Positions 4,291 through 41,244 are shown, numbered from the stretch's first letter. The stretch is 42,491 nt of DNA from Raillietiella orientalis (GCA_036172245.1 JAYWIR010000120.1:62001-104491), one strand, 5' to 3'. A program made the numbers and translations. Notes: generated by a model from the letters alone, not told the origin.

Positions 4291-4508
4291 TTTTCACCCG
4301 GATTTCCCCGGGGCGTTTATTGGAAAATAAACTTTTACAAAGACGTGCGGTGGCTGGACCATTGCTCCAGCCACGCACGAAGAAACACAGAGCCTCCCGA
4401 GTCACCGGTTCGCAGATCGGTACGGTCCACCACGGCAGCAGGGGGAAGGGGGAAAAACAAAAAGCAAAACAAAAAAGAAAAGAAAAGTTGGGAGGGTAAG
4501 GGAAGGGA

Positions 4509-7500
4509 TCAAAGTTGCTGGTGGGGCCGTTGCATCCTTTGCAGGATGCCGTTAAGCTCCTTCTGTATTTCTGGATCAAGGTGGGGCCATCGAGACGCCC
4601 TCCTCAGGAACAGGGAGGCTGGCTGGATGGCACCCTGGTCGCGTTGTCCTCCCGTAGCCTTGCACCAAGCGGTGACGATCCCGCGTAGGCAGCACAAAGC
4701 TGCTAACGAGGCCGCTGGCCGAAGGGCGTCGGCAACGAAGAGGGCTTTCAGTGCGTTCCTGGGGTTGCCGCAGGGGATTCCGATGGCCGCGGCAAAGCGA
4801 AACCAAAGGGGCCGAAGGGCAACGCAATCCACTAGCAAGTGGGGGAGGGAATCCCGTTCCCCACACCTGACGCAATTGGGGTCCATCGCTCCCCAGGTCC
4901 AGTGGTGTGGGCGGGCGTTGCAGGGGAGTCCCCAGTGCTGCAACAGGAGAGTCCACTCCTGCCATTTTAAATGGAGGGCGGAAGTGTTCATGAGCACCGG
5001 GGGCCACTTCAGATGTTCAATGGGAACATCGAGCAGCGTGCCCCAGCGCAGAAGTACATTGGGAGGCGTACTCGGGGTCGCTGCGTCTGTTAACTGGCCC
5101 GTCTTCCACTCTCCCTGCTTCTTCTCCTTCCCGGAGATTTTTATTGTAACCTCCCACTTCGCCGCAACATCGCTGTCCTGATGTTTCACTAGGGAGTCCA
5201 GCGCAGCAGCGAGGGGGGTTCTTCCTGACCACGCTCTCTCCTTAGGATCCTCCAGGATCTCGCGGAGCGTGCAACTTCTGTAACCCCCAAACAGGAACCT
5301 TCGTTCCTGTTGGGAGCGTTGCATGCGGAACTGTGCCCACGTTCGAACAATTTCCTGCAACCAGGCACTACCGTTAAACGGGCGTCAGGTGAACAATCCT
5401 GGGATTTTCCGATACAGCGCAGCCACCCTCCGTAGCTGGAGTCCGCATCGGTTGACGCGGCGACGGAGTGCAAGAAACGACGTCACTCCCGTCTTGCCGG
5501 TAGCTTGCTGGAGAAGGAGACGTGCAGGGACGCACCAACAGGTGCACCACAACTCTGGAACGAGTGCCGACAAGCGGAACTGCAGCTAAAGCTCCAGCCG
5601 CTCCAGCGTCAGGAGGCCCAGACCACCATCCCGACGAGGATCTCACAAGTCCTTTAAGCGGACTCGGGCCCTCACTTTGCCCCAAAGGGCGATACGGAGG
5701 AGGTCCTTTGTCCGCTTTTTAATCCTCTCTGTGAGGGGGCAAACAAAAAGCAGGGGCTGGTGGAAAGGAGCCGCGAACGTGTTCAAAACCGCGGCCCGTT
5801 TAGGCAGGAACAACCTGCCGCCTCGGAACGGGCCGATCGCCGTATCTACTTTTTGGAGGAAGCCATACCACGCTTCCGCAGGGGAGTAGTCCCCCAACGG
5901 CACACCAAGGTACTTGAAGTACCTCACCGTGGGGATCCCCAAACGGACCCAGTCCTGCTGCCCTGCCCACGCCGCACCAACTGGCATCACGGACGACTTC
6001 GCCCTGTTCACCGTAAGTCCGGTTCCCCGATGCAGCAGGTCGAAGAACTCCTCGACCGCCGCAGCCCGGGGTGGACATAGAAAGCAGCAGCAGAAGGTCG
6101 TCCGCGTATGCTGAAACGGCCGGCGTACCGACACAGTCGTGCGGCAGGTGCGCCAGAGTTCCCCTGTACGCTCTCAGTACCAACTCAAGGTAGGTACTGA
6201 AGAGCAAGGGACCCAGGCTGCCAACCTGCCGTATCCCACGCCGCACCGGCACGCCGTGCACGGTCTGCCCGCTGAAAGTAACATTGATGAGCGCGTCGCG
6301 CCAGCAAGAGCGCAGATAGGCCACTAATGAGGCCGGGAAGCCCAAGCGTTCTAGAAGCTCCAAAAGGAGATTCTGGTCGACGCAATCGAATGCTTTGCGC
6401 AAGTCGACTGCGACCGCAAGGGCTCTCTCCCCCACTCGACCATCCAACCCCTTGCCGGCGCACGCACCGGAATTCCGGCTGCCCACCAAGCTCCTTTCTT
6501 GTTTGAGCTCTCGCCAGGTGGAAGCGTGGAACAGGTTCGTCTCCATGCTTCGCCCGGGAACAGCATATGTCTGTTCCGGGCTGATGAAGATGTTGACAAC
6601 ACGTCCCAGACGCTCTGCCCAAACCTTAGCCAGCAACTTGGCGTCCGCATTCACTATTGTGATGGGATGCCAGTTGTTCATGCTCCTCAGATCTCCTCCC
6701 TTAGGGAGGAGCCGCACCTTTGGCGAACGAAACGAGGCGGGAACGTCACCTGTTTCGCGTATCAGCAAGGTGAGTTGCTGTACCAAACGGGTAAGCTCAG
6801 CCGCGAAAGTTCGATAAAACTCCGCGGGCAGGCCGTCCTCCCCTGGAGCCTTTCGCCTCTTGAGCTTTCCGATGGCCGAGGGGTTCTCGTCCATCGTGAA
6901 AGGCTCGTCGATGGTCTTTCTCTGCTCCTCCCCGATCGCTGAAGCGCCTTCCGGAAGCAGGAGTCGTGAGACGTTCCTCTCCGGAGGTGCCCTGGCATAC
7001 AGGGAGGAGTAGTAACTCCGCAGCAGGCCGCGGATTTGGGCAGGTGCCGAGTGCTCCTGTCCCTGATCGTCCAGTAAGCTGGCCGATCCGGACTGCCAGG
7101 CTTGCCTCTCGGCTCTTGCTTTGTATTCCGCCAGCTTGCGGATGTCGGGGGTCCTGCCGTAACGACGGGCCTGCAGGTAGGCTCGTTCGTTACGGACCCC
7201 GGTCCCAAAACCCGTGGGTAGGCGGTGCAGAGGAAACTGGTCGCAGAACTCTTGGACCGACCGCTTGAAGCGGTCCCAATCCTGGAGTGTCCGCAGACTG
7301 AAGCTCCGTATGAACGTGCGGAGATGTTCCGCCGCGTCCGTGAGCTTCAGCCAGTCCCCTGGGAGACGCAACGCTGACGAGGGGGGGCCTCTGTCGCGCG
7401 GATGGATCTCGAGGACTAGCGGGCGATGGTCGGACAGCTCGCACGGAAACTTGCCGCGCGTGCCCACGCGAGGGCACAGGTGCTCGTCAAGAAACACGTG

Positions 7501-8091
7501 GTCAATGATGTCTTCCATCCCCGGTGCACTGGCGAACAAATTACAGGTGTGCACCGCCATGCACACCTCGTTGACCAGGTCACGCTCGACATTCTGCTCA
7601 TCTGGTTTCAGGCGAAGGTTGAAATCGCCTGCAACCAGATGGGCATTCCGCACGCCTGCTTTGGTCAGCCAGTCTCGCCGGAGGGCAAGGAAAAACTCTT
7701 TCCTCGTCCTCCTGTTCATCAGGTCCTTGCCGCTCAGTGCGTACACTTTCGTGACGATCAGATCGATCGAGTCGGACGACCTGAGAGTCAGCTGGCCGAC
7801 ACGACCGTGATCGTCGAACCGCACGCCCCGAGTTGCGGCCTCGACGGCTGGCCGAAGCAGCTAGGCGACACCGCAACTTTTCGCTCTCCCACACCTGTAC
7901 CGTAGCCGCTCTCCGGAGAACCGTTTGATTTCTCGCGCTTGTTCTACAGAGATCACGTGGATCTCCTGCAGCAGCGCAAGGTCGTAGGATTCCAGAAGGG
8001 CGGCCATGTCTCGTCTCCTGCCGGCGTCTGTCATGCCGTTCACGTTCCAAACGGCGATGCGCAGACGACGGCAGGAGGAGATTCCCGGCAT
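4509..8091 (-). pseudogene. B1 ORF2 (APE-RT-Cys/His finger), frameshifted
   Basis: WNVNG, LLQE, GDFN, DHVF, SDH, KAPGEDG, DLRKAFD, YADD, FKYLG, CVRCGERDSLPHLLVDC. Confidence 0.93.
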
Positions 8092-9766: not shown

Positions 9767-9860
9767 CGCTGCCTGATCGACCACCGAACCACACGACGCT
9801 TGCACTGGGGGAGACTTCCTGGCACGAGGAGCACCGAGAAAACTCGTTCATCCTGGAGCG

Positions 9861-11978
9861 CACAAGGCATTCGACTTTATAGACCAGGAACTCCTCTTGG
9901 AGCTCCTGGGTCGCATGGGCTTCCCACCCTCCCTGATTTCCTACCTGCGCTCTTGCTGGCTGAATGCGATGATTGCTGTCTCTATCAGCGGTCACAAGGT
10001 GTATGGCGTGCCGGTGCGGCGGGGCATAAGGCAGGGAGATAGCCTCAGCCCCCTGCTCTTCAGCACCTACTTTGAGTTGGTGCTGAGAGCGTATAAGGTG
10101 AGTTTGGCTCCCTTGCCCAGCTCGTGTCCCGGCACGCCTGCCGTAGCAGCGTACGCCGACGATCTTCTGCTCTTGTTGCCAATGTCCACCCCGGCAAAGG
10201 CTGTCGGGGACTTCTTCGATCTGCTCAGTCGCGGGACCGGACTGCAGATCAACAGGGCTAAGTCGTCGGTGGTGCCAATAGGTGCGGCGTGGGCATGGCA
10301 GCAGGACTGGGTCCGTCTGGGGATCCCCATGGCGACGTGCTTCAAGTACCTTGGTTTGCCGTTGGTGGACTACTATCCTGCGAAAGCGTGGTCCAGCTGC
10401 CTTCAAAAAGTCGAGACGGCGATTGGCCCGTTCCTGGAATGCAAGTTTCACTTGCCCGAACGGGCCGCGGTTTGGAACACCTTCGAGGCCCCCATCCTCC
10501 GCCCCTTGCTTTTTGTTTGCCCCCCAACCGTAGAATCGAAGAAGAGGACAAACAAAATCCTCCTCCGTATCGCCCTTTGGGGTAAGGGGAGTCCATGAGT
10601 CCCTCTGAAGGAGTTGAGTGCTCCGCGTCCGGACGGCGGTCTTAGCCTCCCGACGCTGGAGCACGTGGAGAAGCAGCTGCGGTGGCGAACCCTCGCCATC
10701 GCAGCGAAGATGTGGAGCACCCCTTGGTGCACTCCGGCCCGCCTCCTGGCCAGCCGTGTGTCCCGGTGCGATGGACTCGCGTCTTTTCTTCTGAGCCGTC
10801 GCTGGAAGATGCGAAGATGCGGCCTACTGCTAGGGCGCATGGCAACATTTTCCAAGGAGAACAGCTGGATGGTTTGCTGCCCCGCCAACTCCCCCGCCTG
10901 GCTGGAGGAGAACATCGGAACGTGGGCAGTGGTGTACCAGAGGAGCCACGAAACGTGGAATCGTCTCCGATGCAGCCCCTACGCCCGCTGCACGCTGCGT
11001 AATCTCCTGGAGAGTCCAGCAAGATGCACGTGGGCAGAGACGACCTGCCAACTTCGGCGCTGCCCTTCCTGAGGAGGGCACTTTACAGCAGCCGGACGCC
11101 AAGTTGGCAAGTCTCCTGCTGCATTGAGGGACGCGAGAAGTTAAGTAGCGGCTGGACAACAGGAGAACTGGCCGACTCCACGACCCCGAGCGTCCAGCCG
11201 CAAGGATTAGCAGCATGGGGCGAGCTGCTCGCCATCCCCAGGGATGAGCTGAAGTGGCCCCCGGTGATGAAGGAATCCAGGATCCTGCCCCTCAAGTGGC
11301 AAGAGTCGGCGTTGCTTTTGTTGCACTGGGGTCTATCCTGCAACGCGCGCCGCTTCCACTGGACGAGGGGAGCTGTGGATCCTGCGTGTGCCAGGTGCGG
11401 GGAGCGGGAGTCGCTTCCCCACCTCTTAGTTGAATGCTCTGCCGTCCGGATTCTTTGGGATCGTCTTAAAACGGCTTTCGGGATACCGGATGGTGGCAAC
11501 GTAGGATGTGTTTACAGTCTTGTCTTCGTGCATAACGGCGTCAGTCCAGCTGCAGCCCTTGCAACACTTTGCTGCATTCGTGGTATAATGGCAGCTTGGA
11601 GTGATGTCGAAGATGAAGACTGCATCGTGAGGAACGTCATCGAGTATGCTTTTCGCTTTTTACAGAGAGCTACCCGATGGCTTCATCTAGGGAAATTGAA
11701 AATGGAACTAGAAGGCATCCTGCAAAGGATGGGCTCTCCTAGCAGTTTTCTGTGATCCCTTCCCGGCCCTCCAAACTACTTTTTCGTTTGTTTTTCTGTT
11801 TTTATTTTATTTTTGTTTTCTCCCCCATCCCCCTCCACTGCCGAGGAGAGCCACACCGGGTTGCGTCCCGGTGTCCCAGCAGTTCCTCTATTGCGTGGCC
11901 GTCAGTGGTGCCTTGTACCAGGTTCTGTACTGACTGTTGAAATGTTTTTAATAAACGTCCTGGCGTATCCGGGTGGCA
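9861..11978 (+). mobile_element. C: 3' half of a LINE (RT from HKAFD to 3' end)
   Basis: RQGDSLSP, YADD, FKYLG, CARCGERESLPHLLVEC, stop 11755, T-rich 3'UTR, AATAAA 11950. Confidence 0.92.
11950..11978 (+). terminator. 3' terminal signal: AATAAA + hairpin (representative of 7)
   Basis: AATAAACGT-CCTGG-CGTAT-CCGGG-TGGCA. Confidence 0.75.
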
Positions 11979-11988
11979 TCGCCGAAAG

Positions 11989-15324: not shown

Positions 15325-16698
15325 TCATACGAGTCGGACGTGATTTCGTGTCGCTCCGTGGTTCCGCTGTTTGGCTGTGTTTGTGAATCCCACTGCACAT
15401 CCCTAAGGATGAGCAGTGAACAACGCAACGTGGAAGACCTCGAGCCTGTGGTTCAGGAACTTTTCGCAGCTGGAGTGATGGCGACAACGTGTGCGAGCCC
15501 GCCCCACCGGCCAGGAGCTTTGCGGACGTGGCTTCTTCTGCAGCCGTACAAAAATAGCTCCCCGACTAGGCGGAGATGCAAGCCCATGTAGCCCAGGGCT
15601 ACAAGCCTGCTCTCCGCTATAACGTAATTGGTGTAGGAAAGGCTCGGGAGGAGTTCGCGGACGAACTCTACCGTGTGGGAGTGCGAGAAGAGGACCTCAT
15701 AGCACTCATGCCTGTTCCAGCATTGGGCTATGTGAAAGTCCGATGCAAGCAGGCTGCACTTGTGCAGAGGCTTGTCCGCACTCCTTTGACTTTCCGCGGA
15801 AAGAAAGTTTTTCCTTCCGCGATGGACGAGTCTTTTGTCGTTGTTCTCTCGGCCATGGAGCCGGAGATCAACGACAAACAGTTGATGGACGCGTTGGCGA
15901 AATTCGCAACCGTTCATGCGTTGTGGGGGAACGAGAATTCCTACAGGAAATTCCCTTTTGTACACACAGAATTTGCTGCGATTAGGGTAACCGTTCCTAA
16001 CCGCCGCACGCTGTCTGCCACGCTACAGGTCAACGGCACGGTCGTTCATCTGTGGTTCGTTGGCAAAACTTGCGCGTGCGAGCAATGCGGCAAAGAAGGG
16101 CATCGAGGTAAGGAATGTTCTTCCCCGAAGTGCCGCTACTGTAAGGAGTCCGGGCACGAAATTAGAAAGTGCCCGGACATAAAGAAAAAAAAAGGAGGCT
16201 GCTAGACTCCGGCGTGCCAAAGAGTTCGCAAAGGAGGAAACAGCATCCTCAAAAAAAAAAAAAACAGGGAGGCTCGCGAAAGGCCGAAGATAAAAAAGGC
16301 CCGAACGCGGTCTCAAAGTTGGCTCCCTCAGCATCAAAACCCAAAAAGAGCAATTGCGCGGTACGGAAGCCATTTTGAAAAGGGCGAGAGGGCTCCGCGC
16401 GTACCGTTACTGTCCCAGTAGCTGATCGAGGAAACGCTACTCGCGAAATGGAATCAGTTACACCAGTCGCTCCGTGCGACAAGGCGAAAGAAGGATACGC
16501 GGGAGAAAATTGCGTGGTAACCGTCTCCTTGAGGGCTCTGTCCATTTCGGAGGCTTCAGTCAAAAACCTCACGAAGGCGTTTGCAGGTTCGTCGAAAAAA
16601 GCCAACGAAAGCTGCGTTCCGTCGCCTCAAAACACGCAGCAACCAGCTGCATCCTCCCCAACAAGACAGGTTTCTTCAAGTTCCACAAGGAGTGGAAC
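15325..16698 (+). mobile_element. D 5' part: 5'UTR + ORF1 (ATG about 15409)
   Basis: GGACGTGATTT at 15336; CEQCGKEGHRGKEC and CRYCKESGHEIRKC. Confidence 0.88.
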
Positions 16699-16770
16699 AA
16701 ATTTATTTTTCAAGAATTTTTCTACAAAAACATTCACGCTACAGTCTCATTCATACCATTTGCACTGTTT

Positions 16771-19700
16771 TTACCACCCTGAAGTCCATGGGTTCACATG
16801 TTCTGCACTAATGGTGGGTTTCCTGCTGTTTGGTCTCGAGCGTCGTCTATCTATCCTCTTCAGGATGAATCGGAACGTCCAGGCTTGGATTTTCCCACAG
16901 TTTCTAACGCCGATTTCCCTCTTCAGGAGCCCTTGTAGGATCTCCATCGGTGGTGCGGCTCTGCTGGCTTTCCTCATTTTCCACCACCGCACAAGTATGG
17001 CGGTGATGAAGAGGGCGATGGTCGTCCTCACCATGGGATTGTAACAGGGAACATTACCATCCCCCTGAAACATACCGGAGAGGATCTCCATTACGGATCT
17101 GTTCGTGAGTCCGATGATCCTTTTCAGGATCAGTCAGTCATGAAGCAATGTGGGTCACGTCAAGACGTGAAGTCTCGTGTCGTTGTCTCCACATGCCGTG
17201 CAAACTCGATCTTCCCGTCTTCCAGTATAGTACTGCAATCGGGAATCACTCTGGATTCCTCCATGATAAAACATCAGGAGGTCATCCTGGGTGCTCCGCG
17301 GAAGGTCACTTCTCCAGAGCATCGTGCCGATCGCTAGCAGGTTGACCCGGTCGCTTCCGTAGCAATCGGCGGCTTCCTGGAGGGCACTAATATCACTGTG
17401 TTCTTCTTGAATTAGTCTTCGGAGGTTTGTTCTGGTTACCCTGGACCACGCAAAGTCGTTGTGGTTGATCCACACCTTGCAAGCCATGTGGGAAAACCTT
17501 CCTAACATCATCTCTATATACCTAAGTATACGAGTGTGATGTAGGTACCCTCCTCGTTTCCAATCCTGGAATCGTTGTAGGGTAACTCTGGACCGCTGGT
17601 GGATCCAGCTTCTCGTGTCAGGTGGGACAGGAAGCATCCAAAGGATCACCAGGATGGACTCGTCCTGCCAGAGTTTTCTACTTCTCAGCACGATCTTGAT
17701 TTTGTGCCTTCGCACCAGCCGTTGCTTCTTCGTTCAGGTTAGGTCGATTTTTTTCCATTCGCCTGCTCGGCCTAGCAGCGCAGTCATCAGGCCTTTCGAG
17801 AAGTTCAACAACAAAGCGTAGGCCCTGTGCGCCGCATACGGCCAGTCATCCCAGTGAGTGGCAATGTCCAGGATGTGTCGCGTATACATGATTTCTATGG
17901 AGTGTGCAAGCGACTACATCCCGGAACCTCCTTCTTACCTGGGACGACACAGGGGTTTTAGTCGAACTCTTGGGCGATAGTGGCCCCACAGTGTTTTTCT
18001 CTGCATCTTGTCGAACTCCCTCGTGGTGTCCTTGTTCATCCTAGCGAAGGCCGTTCCAAAGAGCACTCTTGGAAGGACTACTCCGTTCTAATATGTTGGC
18101 CTTTCGTTTCATTCCAATGTCCGTTCCGGTGTACTTCGCTGCTTCCTTGGCCGTTTTCCCTAGGATCTCGGTCCACAATAGCTTCGACGCGGAGTGGTAG
18201 CCAATGTAGACACCTAGGTACTTGGCCGTGTTCACCGTTCGGAATCCTCTCCCCGCTAGAGCAAAGAGATCGAGGATTCCAACGGGCAAGAGCTGGCTTT
18301 TCTGGGCGTTGATCTTTAGACCCAGGCGTTGATCCATCAGGTCTACCACATCCAGAAAAGCTCGTTGATTAATCTCTCCCTTGATAAAGAAGAGTAGATC
18401 ATCAGCGTATGCCAGTTGAGTAAGACGCTGGCCATCGATTGTTATGCCTTGCAGTCGTCCGCTCTTCTCGATAAAAGACGACAACGCCTCCATGTAGATG
18501 ACGAACAGCATCGGACTTAGCGAATCGCCTTGCCGGACTCCCCGTTTCATCCGGATTGCTGCCGTCTCCTGGTTGTTGATTTTGATTCAGCAGTTCTGGT
18601 TCTGGAGTACCACTCTCACGAAGTTGCTAAAGTGTTCCGGAAGGCCTGGCTTCTCCAGAACCTTCAGCAACATCCCTTGGTCGATGGAATCGAAAGCCTT
18701 CTCCATGTCAGTGAACACCAGCGACAGGTTCTCTCCGATGTATCGACTGAGTCCAACAGTGGCCTGGGCACACTTGACATTGTCCGATATGTGACGTCCA
18801 GGAACTGCACACGTTTGGATCGGAGAGATGAGCTTCCACATGACCCTGCCTAAGCGGTTGGACCAGATCTTCGAAAACCACTTGGCATCGGAGTTCAGGA
18901 TTGAGATTGGCCTTCATTGAGCGATCTCTGTTGGGTCGCCTCCTTCCGGCAACAATCTCATCCGACTCTTGTAGAAGCACTCAGGTAGTCTGCCTTCTTA
19001 ACGGATGCAGAGGGTCAACTGGTGGAACAAACGCAGGTAGGCATGCAGGTACCGCTGATAGTGCGTGATGGGTACGCTTTCAGGGCCCGCTGCCACGTCC
19101 TTGCGTTGTTGACCAAACGCAGCCTTCACTTGTCTTCGGAGAACTCCTCCTCCAGTCTAGTCCGCTGGAGATCGTCGGTCCTCTTCTCGAGATAGCTCAG
19201 AAAGGCCTGTTGACTAGATCGACAGAGATGTTGTTGCCTGAAGTGCTTCGTGTAATGCCTTTGATAGGCTTCCACGATGTCCTCAGACGACTGTCGCTTT
19301 TGACCGTCGTACTGAATGCAGAAGATATCTGTTGCGACATTTCTCTTCTCCAGCACGCCGACTTCTTCTTTTATGTTCTTGAAGACGTACCGACTCTCGT
19401 ACTGATCGAAGTACTTAGAGAGTGAGCGATCTTGGATGTTCAGCTCCCGTTACGCCTCCTGCCTCATGCGCCTATCTCCGAACTGCATGTTTGCAAACAG
19501 GTGTATCCTGTGTTTCCGGCTGTCCCAGTCGGCGCCTTTTCGGATTGTTGTTGACTTCAGAATCGTCTCCAGGACAGCCTGATATCCGGGATGGGTGCCG
19601 AACCAGGCAAGCATGCTGATGAGCGCCTCCCTATATCCTTGCCTCCGCCGAGGATTCTCCGTTATTAGGGATCACCGCACCAAGGGGTGATGGGACAACG

Positions 19701-20328
19701 TGGTCATAATGTCTCGAAAACCCTGAATGCGATTCCCAAGTTCGGTGCTGTGGAGGACGTGATCGATCGGCTTGTGGCTTGCTGTTCGCCACATCAGTCA
19801 AAACTCTTCCGATAGCCGCCGATACGCCGTCCTTCCTCTGGCGTCTTGTGAATAGGTGATCTCATCCAAGATGTTGAGATCGCCAGCAACAATCACGAGG
19901 TCCTTGGGGGCAACCTTTTCACGGAGTGCTCCATGAAGTGCCTCCGCACAACGAAGTTTTAGCCTGTGCGGCCCGTACACGTTCACCAGTATAAGGTGAA
20001 CAGTTGCGGACCAGGCCAGTCGCACGCCGATGATTCGTCCGGGTTGGGGACAGAACACTTCCAGGATAGTGGGGGCTAAGTGGTTCTTTATTAGCACCGC
20101 CACACCCTTCGTGTTCCGTTCTCCTTCGTTGAGGAACATCTGCCCGTTGAATCGCCGTTCCATTCGCTGGCTTATCTCCAGACCCATCCTGTAAGTCTCC
20201 TGCAGGCACACGATGTCTTGTTGTGCGATGGTCCGCACAATCCTTCTTCTTTTTCCCTGGTCGACCACACCGTTTACGTTCCAGGAGGCGATGTTCATCC
20301 CCCTGGCGGTCGATAGGGAAGAGGCCAT
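16771..20328 (-). pseudogene. J ORF2 (APE-RT-finger)
   Basis: ASWNVNG, CLQET, NVYGP, GDLN, IDH, DMEKAFD, RQGDSLSP, YADD, KYLG, CTACG; many stops/frameshifts; 3' end approximate. Confidence 0.88.
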
Positions 20329-20341
20329 AAAAGGGGAAGAC

Positions 20342-26574: not shown

Positions 26575-26770
26575 TCCGCCCTCATTTTATTTTCGACTGG
26601 TTTTTTTGTTCTCGCGTCCTTTGCCCGATACGCTCCGCAGTCCTTTTGGTGCTAGAACTTTTGAGTTTCTGGGTGAGTGCGGAGCAACACCAAAGTTCCC
26701 TGGAACACTCCTCCCATTCACAAATTTTTTTTTTTTGGACTCCCCTCAGTCGTCCATGTTCTTCCGTTTT

Positions 26771-26788
26771 CCTGGCCTGCGTGCCAGG
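26771..26788 (+). other. 3'UTR RNA hairpin with CUGCGU loop (representative)
   Basis: CCTGGC-CTGCGT-GCCAGG; equivalents with different stems in other lineages. Confidence 0.72.
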
Positions 26789-26885
26789 GGTGAATCTCCG
26801 ATGCATGTTTTCAGAGTTGAGAGCTCGAAACAATTGTTTTCAGCTCGTTTATGTCAATAGACGTCCCAAAGTGACCGGGTGAAAA

Positions 26886-26901
26886 ATTTCAACGTTCGCC
26901 T
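26886..26901 (+). repeat. 16-bp TSD, right copy
   Basis: Exact match to 15309-15324. Confidence 0.92.
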
Positions 26902-27880
26902 GAAACCAGATGGGCAGAATCCCGAGCGTGACCTGGTCAACTAGGTGTGCATGAGGGTGCAAAGCTGAAATTTGTTGGTCAGTGCACCGGGAATGGAAGA
27001 CAGCATCAACCACGTGTTTCTTGACGATCACCTGTGCCCTCGCGTGGGCAGACGCGGCAAGTTACCGTGCGAGCTCTCCGACCATCGCCCGATAGTCCTC
27101 GACATCGATCCGCGCGACAAGTGCCCCCCTCGTCAGCGTGGCGTCTCTCAGGGGACTTAATGAAGCACTTAGACGCGGCAGAACATCTCCGCACGCTCAT
27201 ACGGAGCTTTAGGCTGCGGACACTCCAGGATTGGGACCGCTTCAAGCGGTCGGTCCAGGAGTTCTGCGACCAGTTCCCTATGCACCGCCTACCTACGGGT
27301 TTTAAGACCGGAATCCGTAACGAACGAGCCTATCTGCAGGCCCGTCGTTACGCCAGGATCTGTGACATCCGCAGGCTGGCAGAATTCAAAGCGGGAGCCG
27401 AGAGGCAAGCCTGGCAGTCCGGATCGGCCAGCTTGCTGGACGATCAGGGCCAGGAGCACTCGGCAACCCCCCAAATCCGCGGCCTGCTGCGGAGTTACTA
27501 CTCCTCCCTGTATGCCACTGCACCTCCGGAGAGGAACGTTTCACGACTCCTGCTTTCGGAAGGCACTCCAGCAAACGAAAAGGAGGAAAGAAAGACCCTC
27601 GACGAGCCTTTCACGATGAACGAGATCCTCTCGGCCATCGAAAAAGCTCAAGAGTCGCAAGGCTCCAGGGGAGGACGGCCTGCCCGCGAAGTTTTACATA
27701 ACTTTCGCGGCTGAGCTTACCACCTGGTACAGCAACTCACCTTGCTGATAAGCGAGAGAGTTGACGTTTTCGCCTCGTTTCTTTCGGCAAAGGTGCGGCC
27801 TTTCCCTAAGGGAGAAGATCTGAGGAGCATGAACAACTGGCGTCCCATCACAGTAGTGAATGAGGATGCCAAGTTGCTTG
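26886..27880 (+). mobile_element. B2b: continuation of host B2 ORF2 to NEDAKLL
   Basis: Collinear with B1/B3 ORF2. Confidence 0.9.
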
Positions 27881-29299
27881 TTGCCACCCGGTCACGCAGG
27901 GGCGTTTATTACAAATTCTCTATGATTCGTGGTAAGAGGCTCCACTACGGCCAACTTGACTGGACCTGCCGGGTCGCCGGTACGAAGACAGGCGCGACTC
28001 TCCTCGGCAGAGGAAGGGGGTGGGGAAAAAACAAAGAGATTTGGGAGAGTTGGGCAGTGATCACTGAACACTAAAAGAAGGGTCCATCCTTTGCAGGATG
28101 CCCTCGAGGTCCGTCCGTATGGTTCCCAGGTGGGGCCATCTGGTCGCAATCCTCAGGTAACGGACTCCAAGTACGACGGCATCCTAGTCGTGCTCGGTCT
28201 GACGTCGCTCAAGCACGTCACAATCCCGCATACGCAGCAAAGTGCAGCCAGGGCAGCGGCGGGATGCAGGTCATCCTGCACGAACAGAAGTCGAAAAACG
28301 TCTCTGGGCTGGATGCCCTCCTGGATCCGTAGGGAGGTACGAAGACGTTCCCACAGGGGTCGGAGGGCAGCACAATCAACAAGGTGTAGAAGGGTTTCCC
28401 GTTCCCTACACCTCATGCAGGTAGGATCTATTCGACCCCTGGTCCAGTAGTGGATGCGTGCGTAGCAGGGTAGATCCCAATGCAACAACAAGAACGCCTA
28501 CTCCTGCCATTTCAGGGGGAGGATCCTAGAACCAATTAATACCGAAGGCCACTTCAGGTCAGCCAGCTAAATGCCGAGTAGCTCGCCCCATCTCTGAAGT
28601 CCTCTCGGCTGGAAACTAGGGGTAGTGGATTCCGCCAGTTCCTTCGTGGACCAGCCGCTTATCAACTTCTCTTTGCCTGCGATGCAACAGGAGACTTGCC
28701 ACCTAGGCTTGCGGCTGCTGGAGAGCGCCCTCATCAGGAAGGGCATCGCCGTAGCAAGAGGGGTTGTCTCTGCTCACGTGCTTCTCGCGGGACACTGGAG
28801 TATCTTCCGCAGAGTGCAGTGGGAATCGGCGCCGCGTCGCAGGCAGTTCCACATTTCTTCATTTCTTTCATTAGTCTTCGCCCACGTGCCAGCTGTCTCC
28901 TCCAGCCATGCGGAGGAGTTGGCGGGGCTGCGTACCATCCAGCCGTTTTCCTTAGCCAGAGTTGCCATGCGTCCCAAAAGATGTCCGCATCTCTTGATGT
29001 TCGAGCCACGGCACAGAAGATAGGACGCGAGACCCTCCGTCCAGGATACACGGCTGGCAAGGAGTCGGGCCGCAACGCACCAAGGGATGCTCCATAACTT
29101 CGCTGCGATGGCGAGGGTTCGCCATCGCAGCCTAGTATCCTAGCGGGAGCCGAGTGCTTCCGGCCCTGGCTGTCAAGCAAGCTGGCCGACACGGATTGCC
29201 AGGCTTGATGTTCGGCCAAGGCTCGGTACTCTGTCAGGCGACGGACATTGGGGTTCCTCGCGTAACGACGGGCATACAACTACGCTCTTTCGTTACGGA
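27881..29299 (-). mobile_element. C': C-like element with RT deleted
   Basis: RNERA..HSAPARIL fused near 29132 to LRWRTLAIAAK; CMRCRERETL finger; 3' motif 27910-27881. Confidence 0.85.
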
Positions 29300-31333
29300 A
29301 GGACGTGTTTTTACTTAGATCCCAAGTGAGTCGACAGGAAGCGGTTTTTTCTGTGTGTTTTTTTGTGTGGAACATCGTTGGTGTCCGATGGCAGCGATGC
29401 CTGACGACACCACGATGTAGGTAGGTGTGAGGGAGGCTTGCCCATCCCCAGAGCCTACAGAAACAGGGTCGTCCGCCCCGAAATCGTTCTCGCCGCTCAA
29501 GGCAAGGAGCTGGAGCGCCATGGTGGCCGCGCCGAGCGCAGAAACCATGGCCGAGATAACAGCCTACCGGGCAGCTGGGTACAAGCCCATTCTGGCATAC
29601 CAGGTAGACAATCTCTTTGACGGGCGAACTGCACGCGCTTTTTCGAAGGCGCTGCAGAACGCCAACGTATTAGAGAAGGATCTTGACGGTCTATCCGTGC
29701 TCAGCGGGGGTCAGCGCGTCGAGGTTGTCTGCAAGGACATCACCTTGGCGCAAAGCTTGATTACTACCCCGCTGAACGTGGGCGGACGCAAGATCCTGCC
29801 AGTCACGATGGACCGCTCCGTAGTGGTACATCTGACAGGGATCACCAGCCGCATGACGCGATCTGCGTTTGATGATAAGCTGAAAAAATACGGAGAAGTT
29901 CACGCGTTATGGCCAAAGGCCACAATCTTTTATGGCTACTGTAGCCTTTTCGGAGGGCAGGCCGCCGCGCGTGTGACGGTGAAGAAGGATAGTGGGATTT
30001 TCCACAAACTAGAGGTCAATGACGAAGTCGTAGACTTTTGGTACGTGGGGAAACCCCGCATTTGTGGCTACTGCAATCCAGTAGGACACTTGTGCAAGCG
30101 GTGCCCGAACATTGTGTGCCACTTATGCGGGGAGAAGGGCCACGTGCGCCGCGTATGCCCTAAACGCCCCACTCCGGTGCCACCTGCCGCAAAAAAAGCG
30201 CAGGCAAAACGCGGAAAATTGGTCGAAACACCAAAGGGAGATACTGGCTGGCAGCAGCCGCTAGCCCCCGTTCCTCAGACACAGGCGTCGGAAGAAAAAC
30301 CTTCCGAAGACGCGGGAGTCCAGGACGGCTGGCAGCTGGTTAAGGCCAGGAAGGAGAAAAAGGTGTCCCCAGCGGAACCCGCGAAAGCGGTCAAAAAGAC
30401 AGTCGGCAAGGCGGAAAAACCTGGGCCGCTCTCCAAAACCATGCGGGAATGTACAATGGCACTGGAACGCATAGCCGTTTCCGAGACTGCCACCCGGGAC
30501 GACGAGCCTCCTCTCGCCGTTTCCGCCGCGCCCGAGGTTCGCGACGGCGAACCCTCTGTTTAAACAGAGGGTGAGCCGCGCGAAATAGCGACGGTCGAAG
30601 TCGAGGACGCCGCGTTCGCGCCGGCGGCGGAGGAGCTCGCGGCCACGCCGGCCGAGCGTGAGAACCACTCGCGCAAGGCCGTGCGAAGGCCGTCTTCCGC
30701 AAAATCGGTTCCTAAAGGTGAGTTGGACCTGGGGGACGGAAGTACATCCTCCTCCTCGGAGGCACCCCGCAGGAAGTCGAAACGCAAGTCTCAGAAGCCC
30801 AGGAGGCGCCTTCCCTCCACCAGCGAGTAGAAGCAGGAAGGTAGCGGAAGCGTGGGAATCCAGGAAAGGGAACTCCCACGCTCGAAAGCCGTCGAGTCGG
30901 CCACCCCGCTGGAAAAGGGTGAGCAGGAAAGCGAAGTCCTCCCTGCAGTCGCGGAGCCTGAACAGCCCGCCTCCATGGAGGAGGGCCAATAGGTAGGCGC
31001 GAACCCACCTGAGGTTTACCCGCTCGAGGGGCCGTTACCCATGGAGGAGGAAGACCAGGTGCACGCAACGCCTGACCCTCCTCCTCCACCTAGCTTCCCG
31101 CCCCATTAGGTGGCGGACGCCGCATCGACATCTTTCCAGGAGTAACACCGGTGCTCGCCAGTCGCCGTCGGATTCGCGCCGCCTGTTCGAACGACAACGG
31201 GATGCGCGACGACGGTAACAGGCGAGATACGGCCGACACCCTGCGTAAGCTTGACCTGGCCCTGCTGCAGGAGATCCACGTGATCACCGCGGCAGACGCA
31301 CAGGAGATCAAGACGATCGCGGGGGGTCGGTTG
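29300..31333 (+). mobile_element. F: 5'UTR, ORF1 (about 29388-31145), start of APE
   Basis: GGACGTGTTTT 29301; CGYCNPVGHLCKRC and CHLCGEKGHVRRVC; LALLQEIH...AGGRL; 5' junction between 29290 and 29300. Confidence 0.88.
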
Positions 31334-33415
31334 TTTGTCACCCGGGTGCGCCGAAGCGTTTATTACAAACTATCCGGGAACAGAGTTCCCGGACAAAGGG
31401 GAAAACGAGATACGAAGGAAGTGGGATTCCCGACAGGCAGGTCGATATGCTGAAAGTCCGGAACGGGAGGGATGGGACCACAAATACACTACTATAAAAA
31501 ATAAAAATAAAAATATGGAGGGCAGATGATAGGAGTCTTTGGTGAGTCCGTTCCTTCCTTTCAAAACCGGTGATGGATGCCAGCGATCTCTCTCCTTACG
31601 TCCTGTGGAAGATGGGCCCACTCGGCAGCCGACGACATGCTTGCGCTGGCTAATCCGGTGGGATGACGAACGATGGCCAGCCTCTCCAACTCTCAATGGG
31701 CCTTGTCGATGGCGCGAATGCAACACACGGTTGCAACGACAGCACCCGAAGACTGACGTGAAGAAGCGGCGCATCAATTCCCTCTCGGTGTCCCCCTGGT
31801 GCAAGAGAGCTGAGGCCAGCCTCCGCCAAAGTCTTTGGAGGGCACCGCAGTCCAAAAGCAGGTGCGGGAGCGTTTCCACTTCCCCGCACCGCTTACAGTT
31901 TGGTGAGACGACTCCCCCGGAAACACGGTTCTTCCGCTGGTTGAAGTGACAACCCCAATGCACCAGCATGATGACGTCCTGCTTCCACGAAAGGGAGAAC
32001 ACAGTAGTGTTCAAACAGGAGGGAAGGACCACAAGTTCTTCGGGGGGCTCACGCAAGTGTTCGCTCCATCGAAGGAGTCCCTTCGAGATGTGGCGAGGCG
32101 TGGCGGCGTCTGCCAGCTCGCGAGTCCTCCAGCCGCCAATAGGTCGTGTTGTTCCTGCAATGGTGCAGGCGACCTCCCATCTCGCTGGTTCGCAGCTGTC
32201 ATCTCTTGCCCTGAAGGCTGACAGTGCGTCGGCGAGGGGGGTGAGAGCCAGGCCGGTCCACTTCTCCTGGCTGCTTCAGACCTCATCCACCGTGCAGTAC
32301 GGGGAGAGGTGAACGCAACGGAGTTCCAGGAAAGAAACATCCTGGTGCTTTGCCCAGCCATACAACGGTTCCTGCCGCCAGGCTTGAAAGTTCGTTGGGC
32401 GGCAGAGGATCCATTCCTGGGCTGCCAGGAGCAGGTAGAGGGGTTTCAACGGGAAACCGAAACTTGTCGTGGGGTGCTCCGTGTGCGGACGCAGCGACAG
32501 AAGTCCATCGCTGCCTGTGCAGCGCCGCAGAAGCAGGCGCGCGGGAGCGCACCACGGAGTGGACCAAAGGTTGGCGCACAGGGCCAACATCCGAAGCTGC
32601 ACCTGCAGCTCGATTCTCTATAGCGTCAGGATGCCTAAGCCAGCATCCGGACGCGGAGCCGCCAAGTCTTTCGGGCGGATCTTGGACCTTGCAGGACCCC
32701 ACAGAGCGTTCCTCAACAGGATATGCGCTTGGAGCTTCGCCGAGTAGGAAGGCGGGCAAACATAAAACAGGTGGTGCAAGAGGGGCGCTACGAAGGTGTT
32801 CCATATCGCAACCCGCTCCAACAGGAGGAACCTGCCATGCTGGAACGGGCTCAGCGCACTCGTAGCCTTCCGAAGGCAGTCCGACCACACTTCCACTGGG
32901 CTGATGTTCTCTAGCGGAACTCCCAGATATTAAGTGGACGAAGCGGCCGGGATCCCCAGGCGGATCCAGTCGGACTGCCCCTTCCACGCCGCAGCAATAG
33001 GTACGACCACGCTCTTGCTCCTGTTTACGCTCATTCCGGCTCCCTAACTGATCAGCTCGAAAAAATCCTCGAGACTGGACGCCGGGGTGGTCATGGGTAA
33101 CAGGAGAAGCAGGTCGTCAGCATAGGCCACCACGGAGGGCGTTCCAGAACAAAGGCTCGACAGGTTGGCCAGCGTCAGCCTGTACGCACTCAGCAACAAC
33201 TGAAACAAGATCCTGAAAAGCAACGGGCTTAAACTGTCGCCCTGCCTGATGCCTTGCCGCACCGGCACGCCGTACACGTGGCAGCCGCTGAAAGAGATGG
33301 AAATAAGCGCGTGGCGCCAGCAAGCGCGCAAATACGCCACGAGGTGCACCGAGAGACCGGGGCGCTCCAGCAGCTCCAGCAGGAGATCCTCATTTACGCA
33401 GTGGACCGCCTTTCG
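31334..33415 (-). mobile_element. H: 3' half of a LINE (RT from RKAVH, a decayed KAFD, to 3' end)
   Basis: RQGDSLSP, YADD, CKRCGEVETLPHLLLDC, AATAAA 31364-31359. Confidence 0.9.
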
Positions 33416-36400: not shown

Positions 36401-36713
36401 CTGCCCGCGAAGTTTTACCAAACTTTCGCGGCTGAGCTTACCCCCTGGTATAGCAACTCACCTTGCTGATACGCGAGACAGTTGACGTTTCCTCCTTGTT
36501 TCTTTCGGCAAAGGTGTTGCTGCTCGCTAAGGGAAGAGATCTGAAGAGCATGCACAACTGGCGTCCTATCACAATAGTGAATGAGGACGCCAAGTTGCTA
36601 GCTAAGGTTTGGGCAGAGAGGTTGGGACGGGTTGCCAACATCTTCATCAGCCCGGAACAGACATATGCTGTTCCCGGGCGAAGCATGGAGGCGAACCTGT
36701 TCCACGCTTCCAC
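33416..36713 (+). mobile_element. B3: B-family 5' part (ORF1 33509-35142; ORF2 35142-36713)
   Basis: Leader TGCTCCAGGGT-GGCCGTGTTTT; collinear with B1; ends at NLFHAST. Confidence 0.92.
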
Positions 36714-36747
36714 CTATGTATCTCCTGCTGCTGCAGGAGATACATAG
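36714..36747. repeat. Perfect 15-bp inverted repeat at the B3/K junction
   Basis: CTATGTATCTCCTGC-tgct-GCAGGAGATACATAG. Confidence 0.9.
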
Positions 36748-37668
36748 CATCTCCGAACGGCAGGCATCGGATCTGGAAGAGCGCGCGGGCGGGACGCTAC
36801 ACTGGCGGCAAGGCTCCGCGCACACGTGCGGAGTCGCGTTCCTCGTCCGAGGCAGGGTGGCGGAGGCGGTGCGCAACGTTTGTTTCGACGAGGAAGGTCG
36901 TGTGGGCCAACTTGTCCTGAAGTGGTCCGAATCGATGGACCTGGTCGTTACGAACATCTACGCGCCGAGCGGCGGCCGGCATCACGCCCAGCGACTTGCA
37001 TTCCTGGGTGGCCTGTGCAGCCGCTGGCTCGCTGACTCGGGCCCTAACGTGGCGCACCTCCTTGCAGGAGACTTCAACGTCCACCTGCTAACAGAGGAGA
37101 GACGCCGCTTGAGGGAGAAGCAACTGGTGAGCGAGGCATGCGCGTCCGTGCGCGTGCAAAACTTGCTTGCTGATGAGCCCGGGATAGAGAGATCGCCGGA
37201 CCATGCGTTCCTCTATGAACACCTGCTCTCACGAGTAGGTCGGAGAGGGCGCCTGCTGTCCGCGATTTCGGATCATCCGAGACTGCAGTTCGAGCTCCTT
37301 CCGCCTGGCAAAGGGCCTCCGATAAATGTCTGGAGGTTGCTGGCCGACTGGCTTAGCAATTCGGAGGCGGCGGAGCATCTTCGCCAACACCTCGGGGGCT
37401 TTGCAATCCGTGAACTAGAGGACTGGGACGATCTCAAAAGATCGGTCCGCGAGTTCTGCAGCCGATTCCCCTTGCACCTGCTTCCCCGCGGCTTCGGAAA
37501 GGGTGTCGCGAACAGCAGATCCTATCTGTAAACACGTACCTTCTCCCGATGCCCGGACGTCCGGCGTCTGGCGGAGTACAAGGCCAGGGATGAGCGCCAG
37601 GTTTGGCAGTCTTGAGCGGCTTGTCTGCTCGATGACGCTGGCCAGGAATGCTCGGCTGCAGCCGAAGT
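36724..37668 (+). mobile_element. K part 1: 5'-truncated ORF2 (APE + linker), D/G-like
   Basis: LLLQEIH, NIYAP, GDFN, PDHAF, SDH...ECSAAAEV. Confidence 0.88.
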
Positions 37669-38840
37669 TTGTCACCCGCATATGCCGGGGCATTTATTAT
37701 TCTATTTTTTTATAAAAATTAGATAATAAAGTCTTGAGAAAAATGTTTTCTGTGGGGGAACACTGGGTTCTCCCACCTTGCTCGACGTGTCGGTTGCCGG
37801 TGCATAGACCGGTTAGGTCCATTCCCAAGGCGCATGGGAGGAGAAAACTGGAACAAAAACAAACAAAAAAAGAGATAACGGGTTGGGAAACAGTTATATG
37901 GGGAGAGGGGGGGGGCAGGGAAGGGATCACTGGGCGCCTGGGTCGGTCCTCCGCATCCTGTTAAGGATGCAGTCAAGTTCGGTTTTTATTGTGAAAGGTA
38001 GACGCCACCTTGTCGCTGTCTCTAAAGAGATCGTCGTTTAGTGGATGGCGTCCCTGCATCTTGGGCCTCTTCTTCTGGCGTGCCACCTTTGCACAATGCC
38101 GCGCACGCAGCAGAGGACTGCTAGAGACGCAGCGGGGCGCAGGCCGTCACTCAGAAAGAGGCGACGGTAAATTTCCTTAGGGTCGCCTACTGGAAGATGG
38201 AGGATTGGGGAGATTGGACTCCAGAGTCCATCCAGGGCGACCCACTCGAGGGTGAGTTGCGGGAAGGTTTCTCTTTCTCCGCACTCGACACAGCGGGCAT
38301 CCACATTCCCCAGTGTCCAGTGAGACAGGCGTGCTCTGCTTAACAGTCCCCAGTGCAGAAATAGCAACGTTGTCTCCTGGCACTCCAACGGGAGTGTGCC
38401 GCAATCCCAACACGCTGGGGGCCACTTCACCTTCTCCGGAGGTATTGCGAGCAGCTCTCCTCAGCGCGCAAGTCCGTGAGGCGGGACGCTCGGGGAGGCA
38501 GCGTCCGTGAGCTCCCGAGTCGTCCACACCTTTAAAGGTTTTTTCCTGCATCGGATGAGGCAAGACACTTCCCACGATGCCCGCTCGTTGCTGCTCCTAA
38601 TGTTTTTTAGGGAGGACAGAACGGGGCAAGGGGGCTGAAAGAAGCCCACAGAAGCTTCCGGGGCGTGTTGATAATATCCTGCAGCGGCTGTCGAGCCTAC
38701 GGTCCTCGTCGTAGGCAGTTGTATTCCGCCTCGCTCGTGCCGTTGATCTTAGCCCACGCGGAAGCTGACTCCTGAAGCCAGGCAGTGCAGTTCGCGGGGA
38801 GGCAGGAGATCCAGGTATTCTCCCTCATCAGGGCGATCAT
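37669..38840 (-). mobile_element. I: 5'-truncated LINE 3' end (about 1.17 kb) inserted in K
   Basis: KWPP..LFLHWG..CVECGERET; AATAAA 37698-37693 + hairpin. Confidence 0.87.
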
Positions 38841-39128
38841 CTGGCGCAAAGTACACCGCGTAGTCAAGCGCTACTACTCCTCGTTGTACGCGGAGGAGCC
38901 CACGGAACGCAGTCTCTCCAAGCTGCTTCTTTCGACGGGCAACCCTGCTATCGAGGAGGAGGAACGCGCCAGATTGGATTGGCCCTTCACGGCGGAAGAA
39001 GTGTCTTCCGCCATAGCGGGCCTGAAGAGGCGTAAGGCGCCTAGGGAAAATGGCCTGACCGCGGAGTTCTTTCACTGCTTCGCGGCGGAGCTCGTCCCCC
39101 TGGTGCTAAGCCTTTCCTTGCAGATGCG
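38841..39128 (+). mobile_element. K part 2: linker/RT start (KVHRVVKRYYSSLY...LQMR)
   Basis: Resumes the frame interrupted at 37668; KAPRENG. Confidence 0.82.
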
Positions 39129-41244
39129 TTTTGAACTCGGTTGCGCCGGGACGTTTATTTGTAAAAGCGAACCACAATCTTCAAGGCAAATTCATCCTTT
39201 CGAGACACAAGAAACGCCCATACAGTAAGTTCAGTTCAGAAAGATCACCGGCACGCAGGGTGCCTTCCAAAAGAAAGGAACGGAAGGAGAGGGATGCAGA
39301 ATAAACAAAACATAAGGGAGCAAACAAAAAAAAACAGTGAAGGGTGGGGTCAGGGATCTTTGGTAGCAAACGTTCCTAATCTTTCTAGAAGCGCTGTTTG
39401 ACAATGGCGACTTCCCTGGAGACTTTTCTGGGCAGATGAGGCCACCTGACAGCTGTTTCATAAGGTTCGCAGCGATTCTGGCGGCGTCCGTTCGCTGCGA
39501 GCTTCCTTTAAATTTACGGCGGGCGATCACGATGGCGCGGATGCAAGAGATTGTTGCGATAACAGCGCCTTTATCCAGTCCGACTTTGCTGAAGAAGCGT
39601 CGAAGCAGGTCTGTGCCAGTGTCCTGAAAACGACGTAGTGACTAAGCAAGTCTCCGCTATACTCCCTCAAGTCACTTCACTCAAGGAGCAGGTGCGTAAG
39701 CGATTCTATCGCCCCGCACCTGAGGCAGTTCGGGGAGACGACTCCCCCTGTAACCAAGTTTCTGCGCTTATTGAACTGGAATCCCCAGTGCAGAAAAAGA
39801 AGAACATCCTGTTTCCATCGAAGCGGGAACACGGAGCTGTCCACACACAAGGAAGGGACCACGAGATCTTCGAGGAGTAATCCAAGAAACTCACTCCAAC
39901 GAAGAAGTCCCTTTGCCAGGTAACGAGGAGTGGCAGCGTCTACCAACACGCTCGTTCTGCAGCCGCTCAGCAGTCTTCTCACTCCTGCAATGCTGCAGAA
40001 GAGCTTCCACCTTGCCGGTTGGCTACTGTCGTTGTTTGCCCTGAGAGCAGACAGCGCTGCGGCGATGGGTGAGACGACTATCCAGGACCAAAGCGACCAG
40101 TCCTGTACGATCACTCCTAGCGGTTCGCGTAAGAGGCCCTGTAAGGGTCGCAGTTGCTCTGGGCGTACATCCAAAGTTGACGTCCAGTGCTCCAGAGCTT
40201 CCTGCTGCCAAGCATTCCAATTGGAGGGGCGGCAGGAAATCCAGGCATGGGCTAACAGCAACGAGGACAAATGCCTCAGCGGGTAGCCAAATCCAGTTCT
40301 CCGGCGAAGGTTGGGCGGCAGCAACGAAAGCAATCCTGCACTGCCGACACATCGCTGGAGAATATGACGAGCCGGAGCACACCAGTGACTAAACTACAAT
40401 TTCCCACATAGGGATAGAAGCCGGAACTGCACTTGCAGTCCAATCTTCTGGATGCTCAGGATGCTCAGATCTGCGTCCTGGCATGGCGCCACCAAATCCT
40501 TAAGGCGAACCCTGGATCGCGCAGCGCCCCACAAGACCTTACGTAGCAGACGCTGCGCCCGGAGTTTAACCACATAGGGAGACAAGCAAACAAAAAATAA
40601 GGGGTGGAGGAGAGGGGCAAGGAAAGTGTTCCATATGCACGCCCTTTCCGGAAAGACGAACTTGCCTTCCAGGAACGTGCCTAGAGCCATCTCTGCTTTT
40701 GAAGACGGGCCGACCACGATTCAGACGAGCAGAAGTCGCCCAACGGTACGCCAAGGTACTTGAAGTACCTGACCGTGGAAATCCCCAGACGGATCCAGTC
40801 GGCCTGTCCCTCCCACGACGCTCCCACCGGCACGACGGAGCACTTCGCCCTGTTAACGCTCATGCCCGCTCCACGACGGATCAGCTCGAAGAAGTCTTGG
40901 ACCGAGTCCGGCGGAGTAGACATGGGCAACAGAAGCAGAAGGTCGTCGGCGTATGCTGCCGCGGACGGAGTGCACGGAGAGGCGCTGGGCAGGATGGCCA
41001 GCGTCAGCCTGTACGCTTTTAGCGCCAACTCAAAGTAGATGCTGAAGAGCAACGGGCCTAAGCTGTCGCCCTGTCTGATGCCGCTGCGCACGGCCACTCC
41101 GTACACACGGCAGCCACTGAAATACAAGTTGATAATCGCGTGGCGTCAGCAAAAGCGCAAGCACAGGAGAAGATGATTCGGAAGCCCATAACGCTCCAGG
41201 AGCTCCAAGAGGATTTTCTGGTTTACGCAGTCGAATGCTTTGTG
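39129..41244 (-). mobile_element. E: 3' half of a LINE (RT from HKAFD to 3' end)
   Basis: RQGDSLGP, YADD, FKYLG, CLRCGAIESLTHLLLE, AATAAA 39159-39154. Confidence 0.9.

Follow-up and report, generated by a model that had tools for sequence, protein, structure and literature searches.

The eel element UnaL2, a long interspersed nuclear element (LINE), carries a stem-loop in the last ~60 nt of its 3' end, adjoining the start of reverse transcription (PMC1636434), and in the ZfL2 elements the loop of the corresponding hairpin is the specific determinant, the stems being exchangeable as long as they remain paired (PMC4176376). In both cases the loop is read by the protein of the element's second open reading frame (ORF2), and both are systems of the stringent type, in which poly(A) is not the driver (PMC1636434, PMC4176376). 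In this work we describe a hairpin, named stem-loop 1 (SL1), in the 3' untranslated regions (3'UTRs) of seven LINE copies within a 42,491-nt stretch of the Raillietiella orientalis genome (JAYWIR010000120.1:62001-104491), referred to below as the window, whose positions are counted from its first letter. The pairing of SL1 has been kept through compensatory changes, and the hairpin may be the handle by which a protein, most likely one encoded by the element itself, recognises the RNA; such a signal is already familiar from other LINEs.

Hairpins of this kind are also described outside UnaL2 and ZfL2. LINE1-1_ZM, an L1-clade element of the monocot 1a type, and the short interspersed elements (SINEs) ZmSINE2 and ZmSINE3 have a conserved 3'-end hairpin with compensatory stem changes, and the tail of L1-1_CR and SINEX-3_CR from Chlamydomonas is named alongside it (PMC3472496). 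The 3'UTR of SART1Bm is recognised by the proteins of the element, also in trans (PMC7265360). Human L1 and Alu are reported to have a stem-loop near the 3' end for which a helping role in retrotransposition is proposed (PMC5135761), in likeness to SL1; as an element of the relaxed, poly(A)-dependent type, human L1 differs.

The tails of the elements studied here are composed, in this order, of a pyrimidine tract, SL1, a second hairpin (SL2), AAUAAA, a third hairpin (SL3) and an A-rich end of 3-8 nt. What SL1 shares with the hairpins of UnaL2, ZfL2-1 and ZfL2-2 is a small size, a location in a LINE 3'UTR, a conserved loop and a stem kept by compensation. It differs in three respects. The UnaL2 and ZfL2 hairpins are shared with SINEs and adjoin terminal (UGUAA)n repeats at which reverse transcription starts, whereas 97-129 nt, including SL2, AATAAA and SL3, separate SL1 from the element's end; the UnaL2 loop is GGAUA and the ZfL2-1 and ZfL2-2 loops differ by lineage, whereas the SL1 loop is common to seven lineages; and UnaL2 and ZfL2 belong to the L2 clade, whereas the SL1 family combines an L1-like ORF2 with a CCHC-type ORF1 and a weak zf-RVT domain. 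Two defining features of the UnaL2/ZfL2 type are thus missing from SL1, the placement in the last ~60 nt by terminal repeats and the L2 clade. No terminal repeats were present at the ends of the seven copies, and no partner SINE, in the sense of a tail copy without ORF2, was found in the window with a UTR profile and a covariance model.

The monocot 1a hairpin resembles SL1 in having conserved loop letters and variable stem letters; it belongs to an L1-clade LINE, the SL1 family being L1-like, and has been read as a signal for stringent recognition within that clade (PMC3472496). It sits in the final 45-50 nt, ahead of poly(A), with UCU as its loop and CGAG as its 3' flank (PMC3472496), whereas SL1 has a CUGCGU loop and an internal position, with A-runs of 2-5 and tails of 3-8 nt. 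As the two have no sequence relation, SL1 is an analogue of the monocot hairpin and not a homologue. SART1Bm, of the R1 clade, is likewise a target-specific LINE with an APE-type endonuclease and a 3'UTR of several hundred nt with internal stem-loops, but it is of another clade, needs ~20 nt of poly(A) for accurate initiation and has different stem-loops (PMC7265360). Rfam gave no match at gathering score; six weak ones appeared at E values up to 5, none of them in a 3'UTR. A literature search for CUGCGU together with "retrotransposon" returned nothing relevant among the matches listed, judged by titles.

The window (42.5 kb, G+C 51-61%) is, from its repeats and ORFs, a nest of diverged copies of retrotransposons without long terminal repeats, on both strands. 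In the LINE family considered here ORF1 contains two CCHC knuckles and ORF2 an APE-type endonuclease (PF03372) and a reverse transcriptase (PF00078), while the C-terminal zf-RVT domain is weak (20.9 bits, below the 27.5 cut-off). The nearest solved structure to ORF2 is human L1 ORF2p (E ~1e-33), followed by R2 proteins (1e-10), in a comparison made among solved structures that include no L2 reference; we take the family to be L1/Tx1-like and target-specific, with an ORF2 that appears L1-like rather than L2-like. The seven 3'UTR copies, designated B1, C, C', D, E, H and I, represent seven lineages, their C-terminal coding DNA being 46-66% identical, and a tree of this DNA gives two clades, B1/C/C' with I, and E/D/H. 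Searching the window with an nhmmer profile of the aligned 3'UTRs returns seven UTRs of this kind and no more (next match E 0.083). These are the seven listed in the original prediction, made from the sequence of the window, so no selection of copies is involved.

The seven hairpins had been quoted in that prediction with exact letters, coordinates and strands. Copy C (11853-11874, plus strand) reads ACACCGGG-TTGCGT-CCCGGTGT with 8/8 positions paired, and is the minimum free energy (MFE) fold at -15.1 kcal/mol. Copy D (26771-26788, plus) reads CCTGGC-CTGCGT-GCCAGG, has 6/6 positions paired, extends to 8 bp over 26769-26790 if two G-U pairs are included and is again the MFE fold (-11.7). On the minus strand, copy H (31430-31445, TCGAC-CTGCCT-GTCGG) is paired at 5/5 positions, one of them G-U. 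The other four copies, all on the minus strand, have imperfect stems: copy B1 (4404-4421, ACCGAT-CTGCGA-ACCGGT) is paired at 5/6 positions with an internal A.C mismatch, copy C' (27975-27994, CGCCTGT-CTTCGT-ACCGGCG) at 6/7 with an internal U.C mismatch, copy I (37796-37813, ACCGGT-CTATGC-ACCGGC) at 5/6 with its outer pair open as A.C, and copy E (39246-39262, CACC-CTGCGT-GCCGGTG) has a left arm three bases short through deletion, so that only CACC and GGTG pair; with flanks included, copy E forms a 10-bp stem with a 9-nt loop starting CUGCGU. The loop is CTGCGT exactly in two of the seven (D and E), one change away in C, B1, C' and H and three changes away in I.

A MAFFT alignment puts SL1 of all copies in one column block, which follows a T-rich and then a C-rich tract and precedes the AATAAA block. 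The gap between SL1 and AATAAA is 64-97 nt, close to the 65-100 nt proposed; the signal of copy D, however, is AATAGA and not AATAAA. Directly behind the ORF2 stop, ahead of the T-rich and C-rich tracts, a conserved box (U)GAUCCCU(U/G)CCC is present (e.g. 11756-11775, plus strand).

SL1 is a real and positionally homologous hairpin, the pairing of which has been kept through compensatory changes. When each arm is matched with its own partner 43 of 56 cells are paired, a figure reached by 5 of the 5040 possible arm permutations; for the 5-bp core the count is 30 of 35 (p ~0.0012, arm permutation). For the structure of 8 bp and 6 nt the paired share of cells is 76.8%, that in column shuffles 64.0%, and none of 500 shuffles attains the observed pairing or the observed covariation score, while sliding the partner by 1-3 columns lowers pairing to 28.6-46.4%. 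Both sides have changed in six of the eight pairs. The loop-closing pair is UA in three copies, CG in three and GC in one, and is thus paired in all seven. A sliding-frame test, which keeps the ancestry and the composition of the UTR alignment, ranks SL1 first of 111 frames of 8 bp and 6 nt (79.6% paired; mean 33.3%, standard deviation 11%), and among 971 frames of 5 bp the SL1 core is first and SL3 second.

Folding gives the same helix when no structure is supplied. RNAalifold predicts it on three alignments, consensus folding de novo of the last 145-180 nt returns exactly two helices, SL1 and SL3, and folding of the whole alignment adds one helix, in the coding end. In most copies the last ORF2 codons (G-I-L-Q-R-M) contain a predicted hairpin CAUCC-UGCAAA-GGAUG, for instance at 11715-11731 (plus strand); since it lacks double changes, conservation of the codons could account for it. 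Compensatory double changes in SL1 fall on at least four separate branches of the tree, namely on those of copy C (UA to GC), of the E/D/H clade stem (UA to CG), of copy D (CG to UA) and of copy H (GC to AU). The covariation claimed in the original prediction is thereby supported on aligned 3'UTRs, by the arm permutations, by the first rank among 111 frames and by these double changes. Mean pairwise identity is 68% in the loop and 50% in the stem letters, for comparison with 40% and 46% in the flanking UTR and 53% in the C-terminal coding DNA. When 26 nt are folded, six of the seven copies have the homologous hairpin as their MFE structure (-4.0 to -15.1 kcal/mol), copy E forming a shifted hairpin (-7.8 kcal/mol).

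SL2 is a long and stable hairpin between SL1 and AATAAA, the sequence of which is not conserved. It is present in five of the seven copies: in C at 11901-11934 (plus, variable sequence, z-score of the region -1.85), in B1 at 4344-4379 (minus, ~14 bp, z -3.55, 0 of 200 shuffles folding as well), in H at 31370-31396 (minus, 12 bp, z -3.40, 2 of 200 shuffles), in I at 37752-37776 (minus, GUGGG.AGAAC with GUUCC.CCCAC, z -1.73) and in D at 26814-26846 (plus, 11 bp, z -1.30). In C' and E, where the same region gives z-scores of +1.13 and +0.12, respectively, SL2 has decayed or is missing.

The terminal module is composed of AATAAA, 3 nt, a 5-bp hairpin with a loop of 5-6 nt (SL3), TG and a short A-rich tail, and no other part of the 3'UTR is conserved as well (73% mean pairwise identity). 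The consensus of SL3 is CCCGG-CGUAA-CCGGG; 27 of its 35 cells are paired, there are no double changes and it is conserved as sequence. In copy C (11950-11978, plus strand) AATAAA is followed by CCTGG-CGTAT-CCGGG (11959-11973), TG and the tail GCA. In copy D (26856-26885, plus) the signal has decayed to AATAGA, the hairpin CCCAA-AGTGA-CCGGG (26865-26879) is paired at three of five positions and the tail is AAAA. The modules of the other copies are on the minus strand and all have AATAAA. They are those of B1 (4291-4321), with CCCGG-GGAAAT-CCGGG (4312-4297) and the tail AAAA, after which the host sequence resumes at TCGAAAGC; of C' (27878-27910), with CCCTG-CGTGA-CCGGG (27901-27887, 4/5 paired) and the tail GCAACA(A); of H (31331-31364), with TTCGG-CGCAC-CCGGG (31355-31341, two G-U pairs) and the tail ACAAACAA, the two T of the TTCGG arm being read as C in five contigs of the DNA run X1; of I (37665-37698), with CCCGG-CATAT-GCGGG (37689-37675, 4/5 paired) and the tail ACAAACTT; and of E (39127-39159), with CCCGG-CGCAA-CCGAG (39150-39136, 4/5 paired) and the tail region TTCAAAACG.

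The elements end 23-28 nt after AATAAA. This is the usual spacing between a poly(A) signal and its cleavage site, so the element end is probably the site of RNA cleavage. In all seven copies the longest run of A behind GGGTG measures 2-5, and such short A-runs together with ends at this spacing fit an initiation that is precise rather than poly(A)-driven. The terminal module probably combines the poly(A) signal with the site at which the start of reverse transcription is fixed.

A distant LINE of lower GC content, here called family X, lies on the minus strand of the window from ~22321 to 16670, with ORF1 at 20342-22321, the endonuclease at 19798-20493 and the reverse transcriptase at ~18041-18913. 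Its 3' end (16670-16707, minus strand) carries AATAAA, the hairpin GTTCCAC-TCCTT-GTGGAAC (16698-16680) and an A-rich end, that is the layout of the terminal module with an unrelated stem. SL1 was not found upstream of the family X AATAAA.

An RNA hairpin that a protein reads through its loop should combine, as shown for ZfL2 (PMC4176376), a stem that varies but stays paired with a loop that is conserved, and this is what SL1 shows. Our reading is that SL1 acts in cis as an RNA stem-loop maintained by selection, a handle read by protein through its loop, the likeliest reader being the element's own proteins; we give this reading a probability of about 0.5. ORF2p would be the first candidate for the reader, and its recognition of SL1 is plausible. 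The knuckles of CCHC proteins often read guanines exposed in loops, and because of this ORF1p, with its two knuckles, may be regarded as the second candidate. Binding to SL1 would single out the RNA to be assembled into the particle carrying out target-primed reverse transcription. The transcript is probably cut 23-28 nt downstream of AAUAAA, and reverse transcription would start at this cleaved end and not inside a long poly(A) tail. SL3, which adjoins the end, would most likely position that start, leaving SL1 as an upstream site of recognition or assembly. Of the two hairpins SL3 is the likelier start site for reverse transcription, and the role of an ORF2p recognition element assigned to SL1 in the original prediction is supported in part.

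A number of observations weigh against SL1 as such a handle. The hairpin analysis has as its sample seven dead copies from one window. With 10-nt flanks SL1 is the MFE fold in C, D, H (with 4 bp) and E (in its variant form) and not in B1, C' and I, the last of which prefers a competing 7-bp hairpin, and with these flanks the z-scores of single copies are unexceptional (-2.18 to +1.32). A covariance model made from C, B1, C' and I recovers one of the three other copies, D (11.9 bits, E 2.2), which scores below two unrelated sites; the model made from H, E and D recovers one of four, C (15.8 bits, E 0.15), such cross-clade models being of low power; a model of all seven finds nothing further in the window (next match 12.3 bits, E 1.8). 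These weak matches indicate that the motif is too small to stand alone, so that its support comes from position and pairing. G-U cells number 5 and A.C cells 3, an excess so slight that pairing alone does not fix the strand of SL1. The distance of 97-129 nt to the end of the element is a further difficulty, SL3 being nearer and better conserved, and so is family X, which has a hairpin in the place of SL3 and does without SL1. Finally, one loop common to seven lineages would not allow an element to discriminate itself from its sister lineages, in contrast to the loops of ZfL2-1 and ZfL2-2; this argues against lineage-specific recognition, and a host factor fits it equally well.

It is possible, if rather unlikely, that SL1 indeed binds a host factor, either as an upstream helper of 3'-end formation at AAUAAA or as a signal for stability, export or localisation. 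A position 64-97 nt upstream of AATAAA, in elements that end at the normal cleavage spacing of 23-28 nt, would suit such a role, and a single loop across lineages at 46-66% coding identity is what one unchanging reader would produce. Moreover, anything beyond its own cleavage site is lost to a LINE, downstream elements included, and it would profit from helpers placed upstream. The absence of SL1 from family X, which has both AATAAA and a terminal hairpin, shows on the other hand that SL1 is no general requirement for 3'-end formation here, no UTR has an Rfam match even at E values up to 5, and we know of no hairpin of the SL1 type acting as an upstream element of poly(A) signals. Between a host reader and one encoded by the element lies the improbable case that SL1 is a guild tag, with at least seven co-resident lineages of ~50% coding identity, which land at different fixed sites in one another's genes, served by one common reader. 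This reader could be a host RNA-binding protein on which the guild as a whole depends or a conserved surface of an ORF protein allowing cross-mobilisation of RNAs, and the terminal hairpin, the tail and the endonuclease would be the sole determinants of lineage identity. If true, it would amount to a two-part address, a common signal for entry into the ribonucleoprotein and a private signal for start and target, which we did not find described for L1-clade elements in the literature examined.

There is little chance that SL1 has no function, being a decaying ancestral palindrome ACCGG..CCGGT in which apparent covariation arises from common ancestry, from the alignment and from post hoc choice. 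Only seven sequences are compared, the CCGG/CCGG core is partly conserved as sequence, a mismatch or deletion lies inside the stems of B1, C' and E, and the unexceptional single-copy energies and non-significant cross-clade models also fit decay. Arms decaying independently would not favour their own partners, yet only 5 of 5040 permutations do as well; SL1 is best of 111 frames, and its core best of 971, in an alignment of the same ancestry; identity has dropped to 40-46% in the flanking UTR with the loop still at 68%; and four double changes lie on separate branches, the closing pair remaining paired in 7/7 copies through three pair types. Hardly credible is a role of the inverted repeat as DNA, be it as a palindrome bound by a protein or as a place where sister LINEs land. 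The repeat does exist on both strands, the G-U and A.C counts (5 and 3) leave the strand unfixed and the LINEs of this genome do insert at fixed sites in one another, as their junctions show; but a palindrome would keep its arm letters, whereas the arms of SL1 change with compensation around a conserved unpaired centre, none of the seven SL1 copies carries an insertion and all six resolved landing sites are in coding sequence, not in UTRs.

If SL1 is a recognition signal, it would represent an L1-like LINE outside green plants and algae that selects its RNA by 3'UTR structure and not by poly(A), a case with a bearing on Ohshima's proposal of a stringent ancestral element of the L1 clade (PMC3472496). 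The principle of LINE 3'-tail recognition through stem-loops is well known, and the gain would be incremental. SL1, with a hexaloop and a stem of 5-8 bp, and the terminal hairpin are small defined RNAs suited to the questions of how target-specific L1/Tx1-like elements choose their template and fix a precise start of reverse transcription, and in this genome the three-module tail can serve to locate 3' ends and any partner SINEs.

Six 3' junctions could be fixed by empty-site paralogues present in the window. They are located at 4291 (B1), 27877/8 (C'), 26885 (D), ~31331 (H), 37665 (I) and 39127 (E), the corresponding empty sites being 195|196, ~36599|36600, 35606|35607, ~35327 and 7905, ~24035 and ~24313; the C' junction is confirmed by joints in contigs of run X1 at 27876. 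Each of the six falls within ORF2 coding sequence belonging to a different LINE copy, in antisense orientation in five cases. B1 has inserted antisense to the K-A-F-D codons of the reverse transcriptase; the one sense insertion is that of D, at the endonuclease motif GD|FN.

Two further roles for the SL1 loop were considered and rejected. The complement of the loop, ACGCAG, is found beside the empty site of B1 (190-195, plus strand), where it derives from the D-C-V codons that follow K-A-F-D, as if the loop guided the element to its target; ACGCAG is present at none of the five other resolved landing sites (C', D, H, I, E), and with one site in six the B1 case was treated as coincidence. A kissing interaction between the loops of SL1 and SL3 (UGCG with CGUA) has 23 of 28 cells paired and a double change in copy I. 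It was ruled out by comparing own with exchanged loops (p 0.44, or 0.17 with Watson-Crick pairs only), and it is weakened by the fact that the loop changes of copy I include one CpG-type transition.

Relatives of the family are scarce in sequence collections. Protein-guided scans confirmed no relative among metagenome contigs (596 pattern matches), genome contigs (32) or viral contigs (94). A DNA pattern scan of metagenomes gave 16 loci, in 13 of which the UTR-profile match barely exceeds the pattern itself; the UTR layout was present in none of the five inspected, which included all three with longer matches, and all 16 were attributed to chance. In the Atlas the neighbours of the LINE proteins are generic endonuclease and reverse transcriptase clusters. 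A homologue search returned eight proteins. One of these, the public protein P0001 (619 aa, from a 2870-nt contig), is 72% identical to the reverse transcriptase of the copy at 5800-7860 (minus strand), and the other seven are at most 26% identical, so the family is almost absent from public protein sets. Related copies are found in the DNA run X1 (share 0.07), which gave 1471 differences from the window and of which 446 contigs could be placed on the window at 80% likeness, 249 of them being less than 90% alike.

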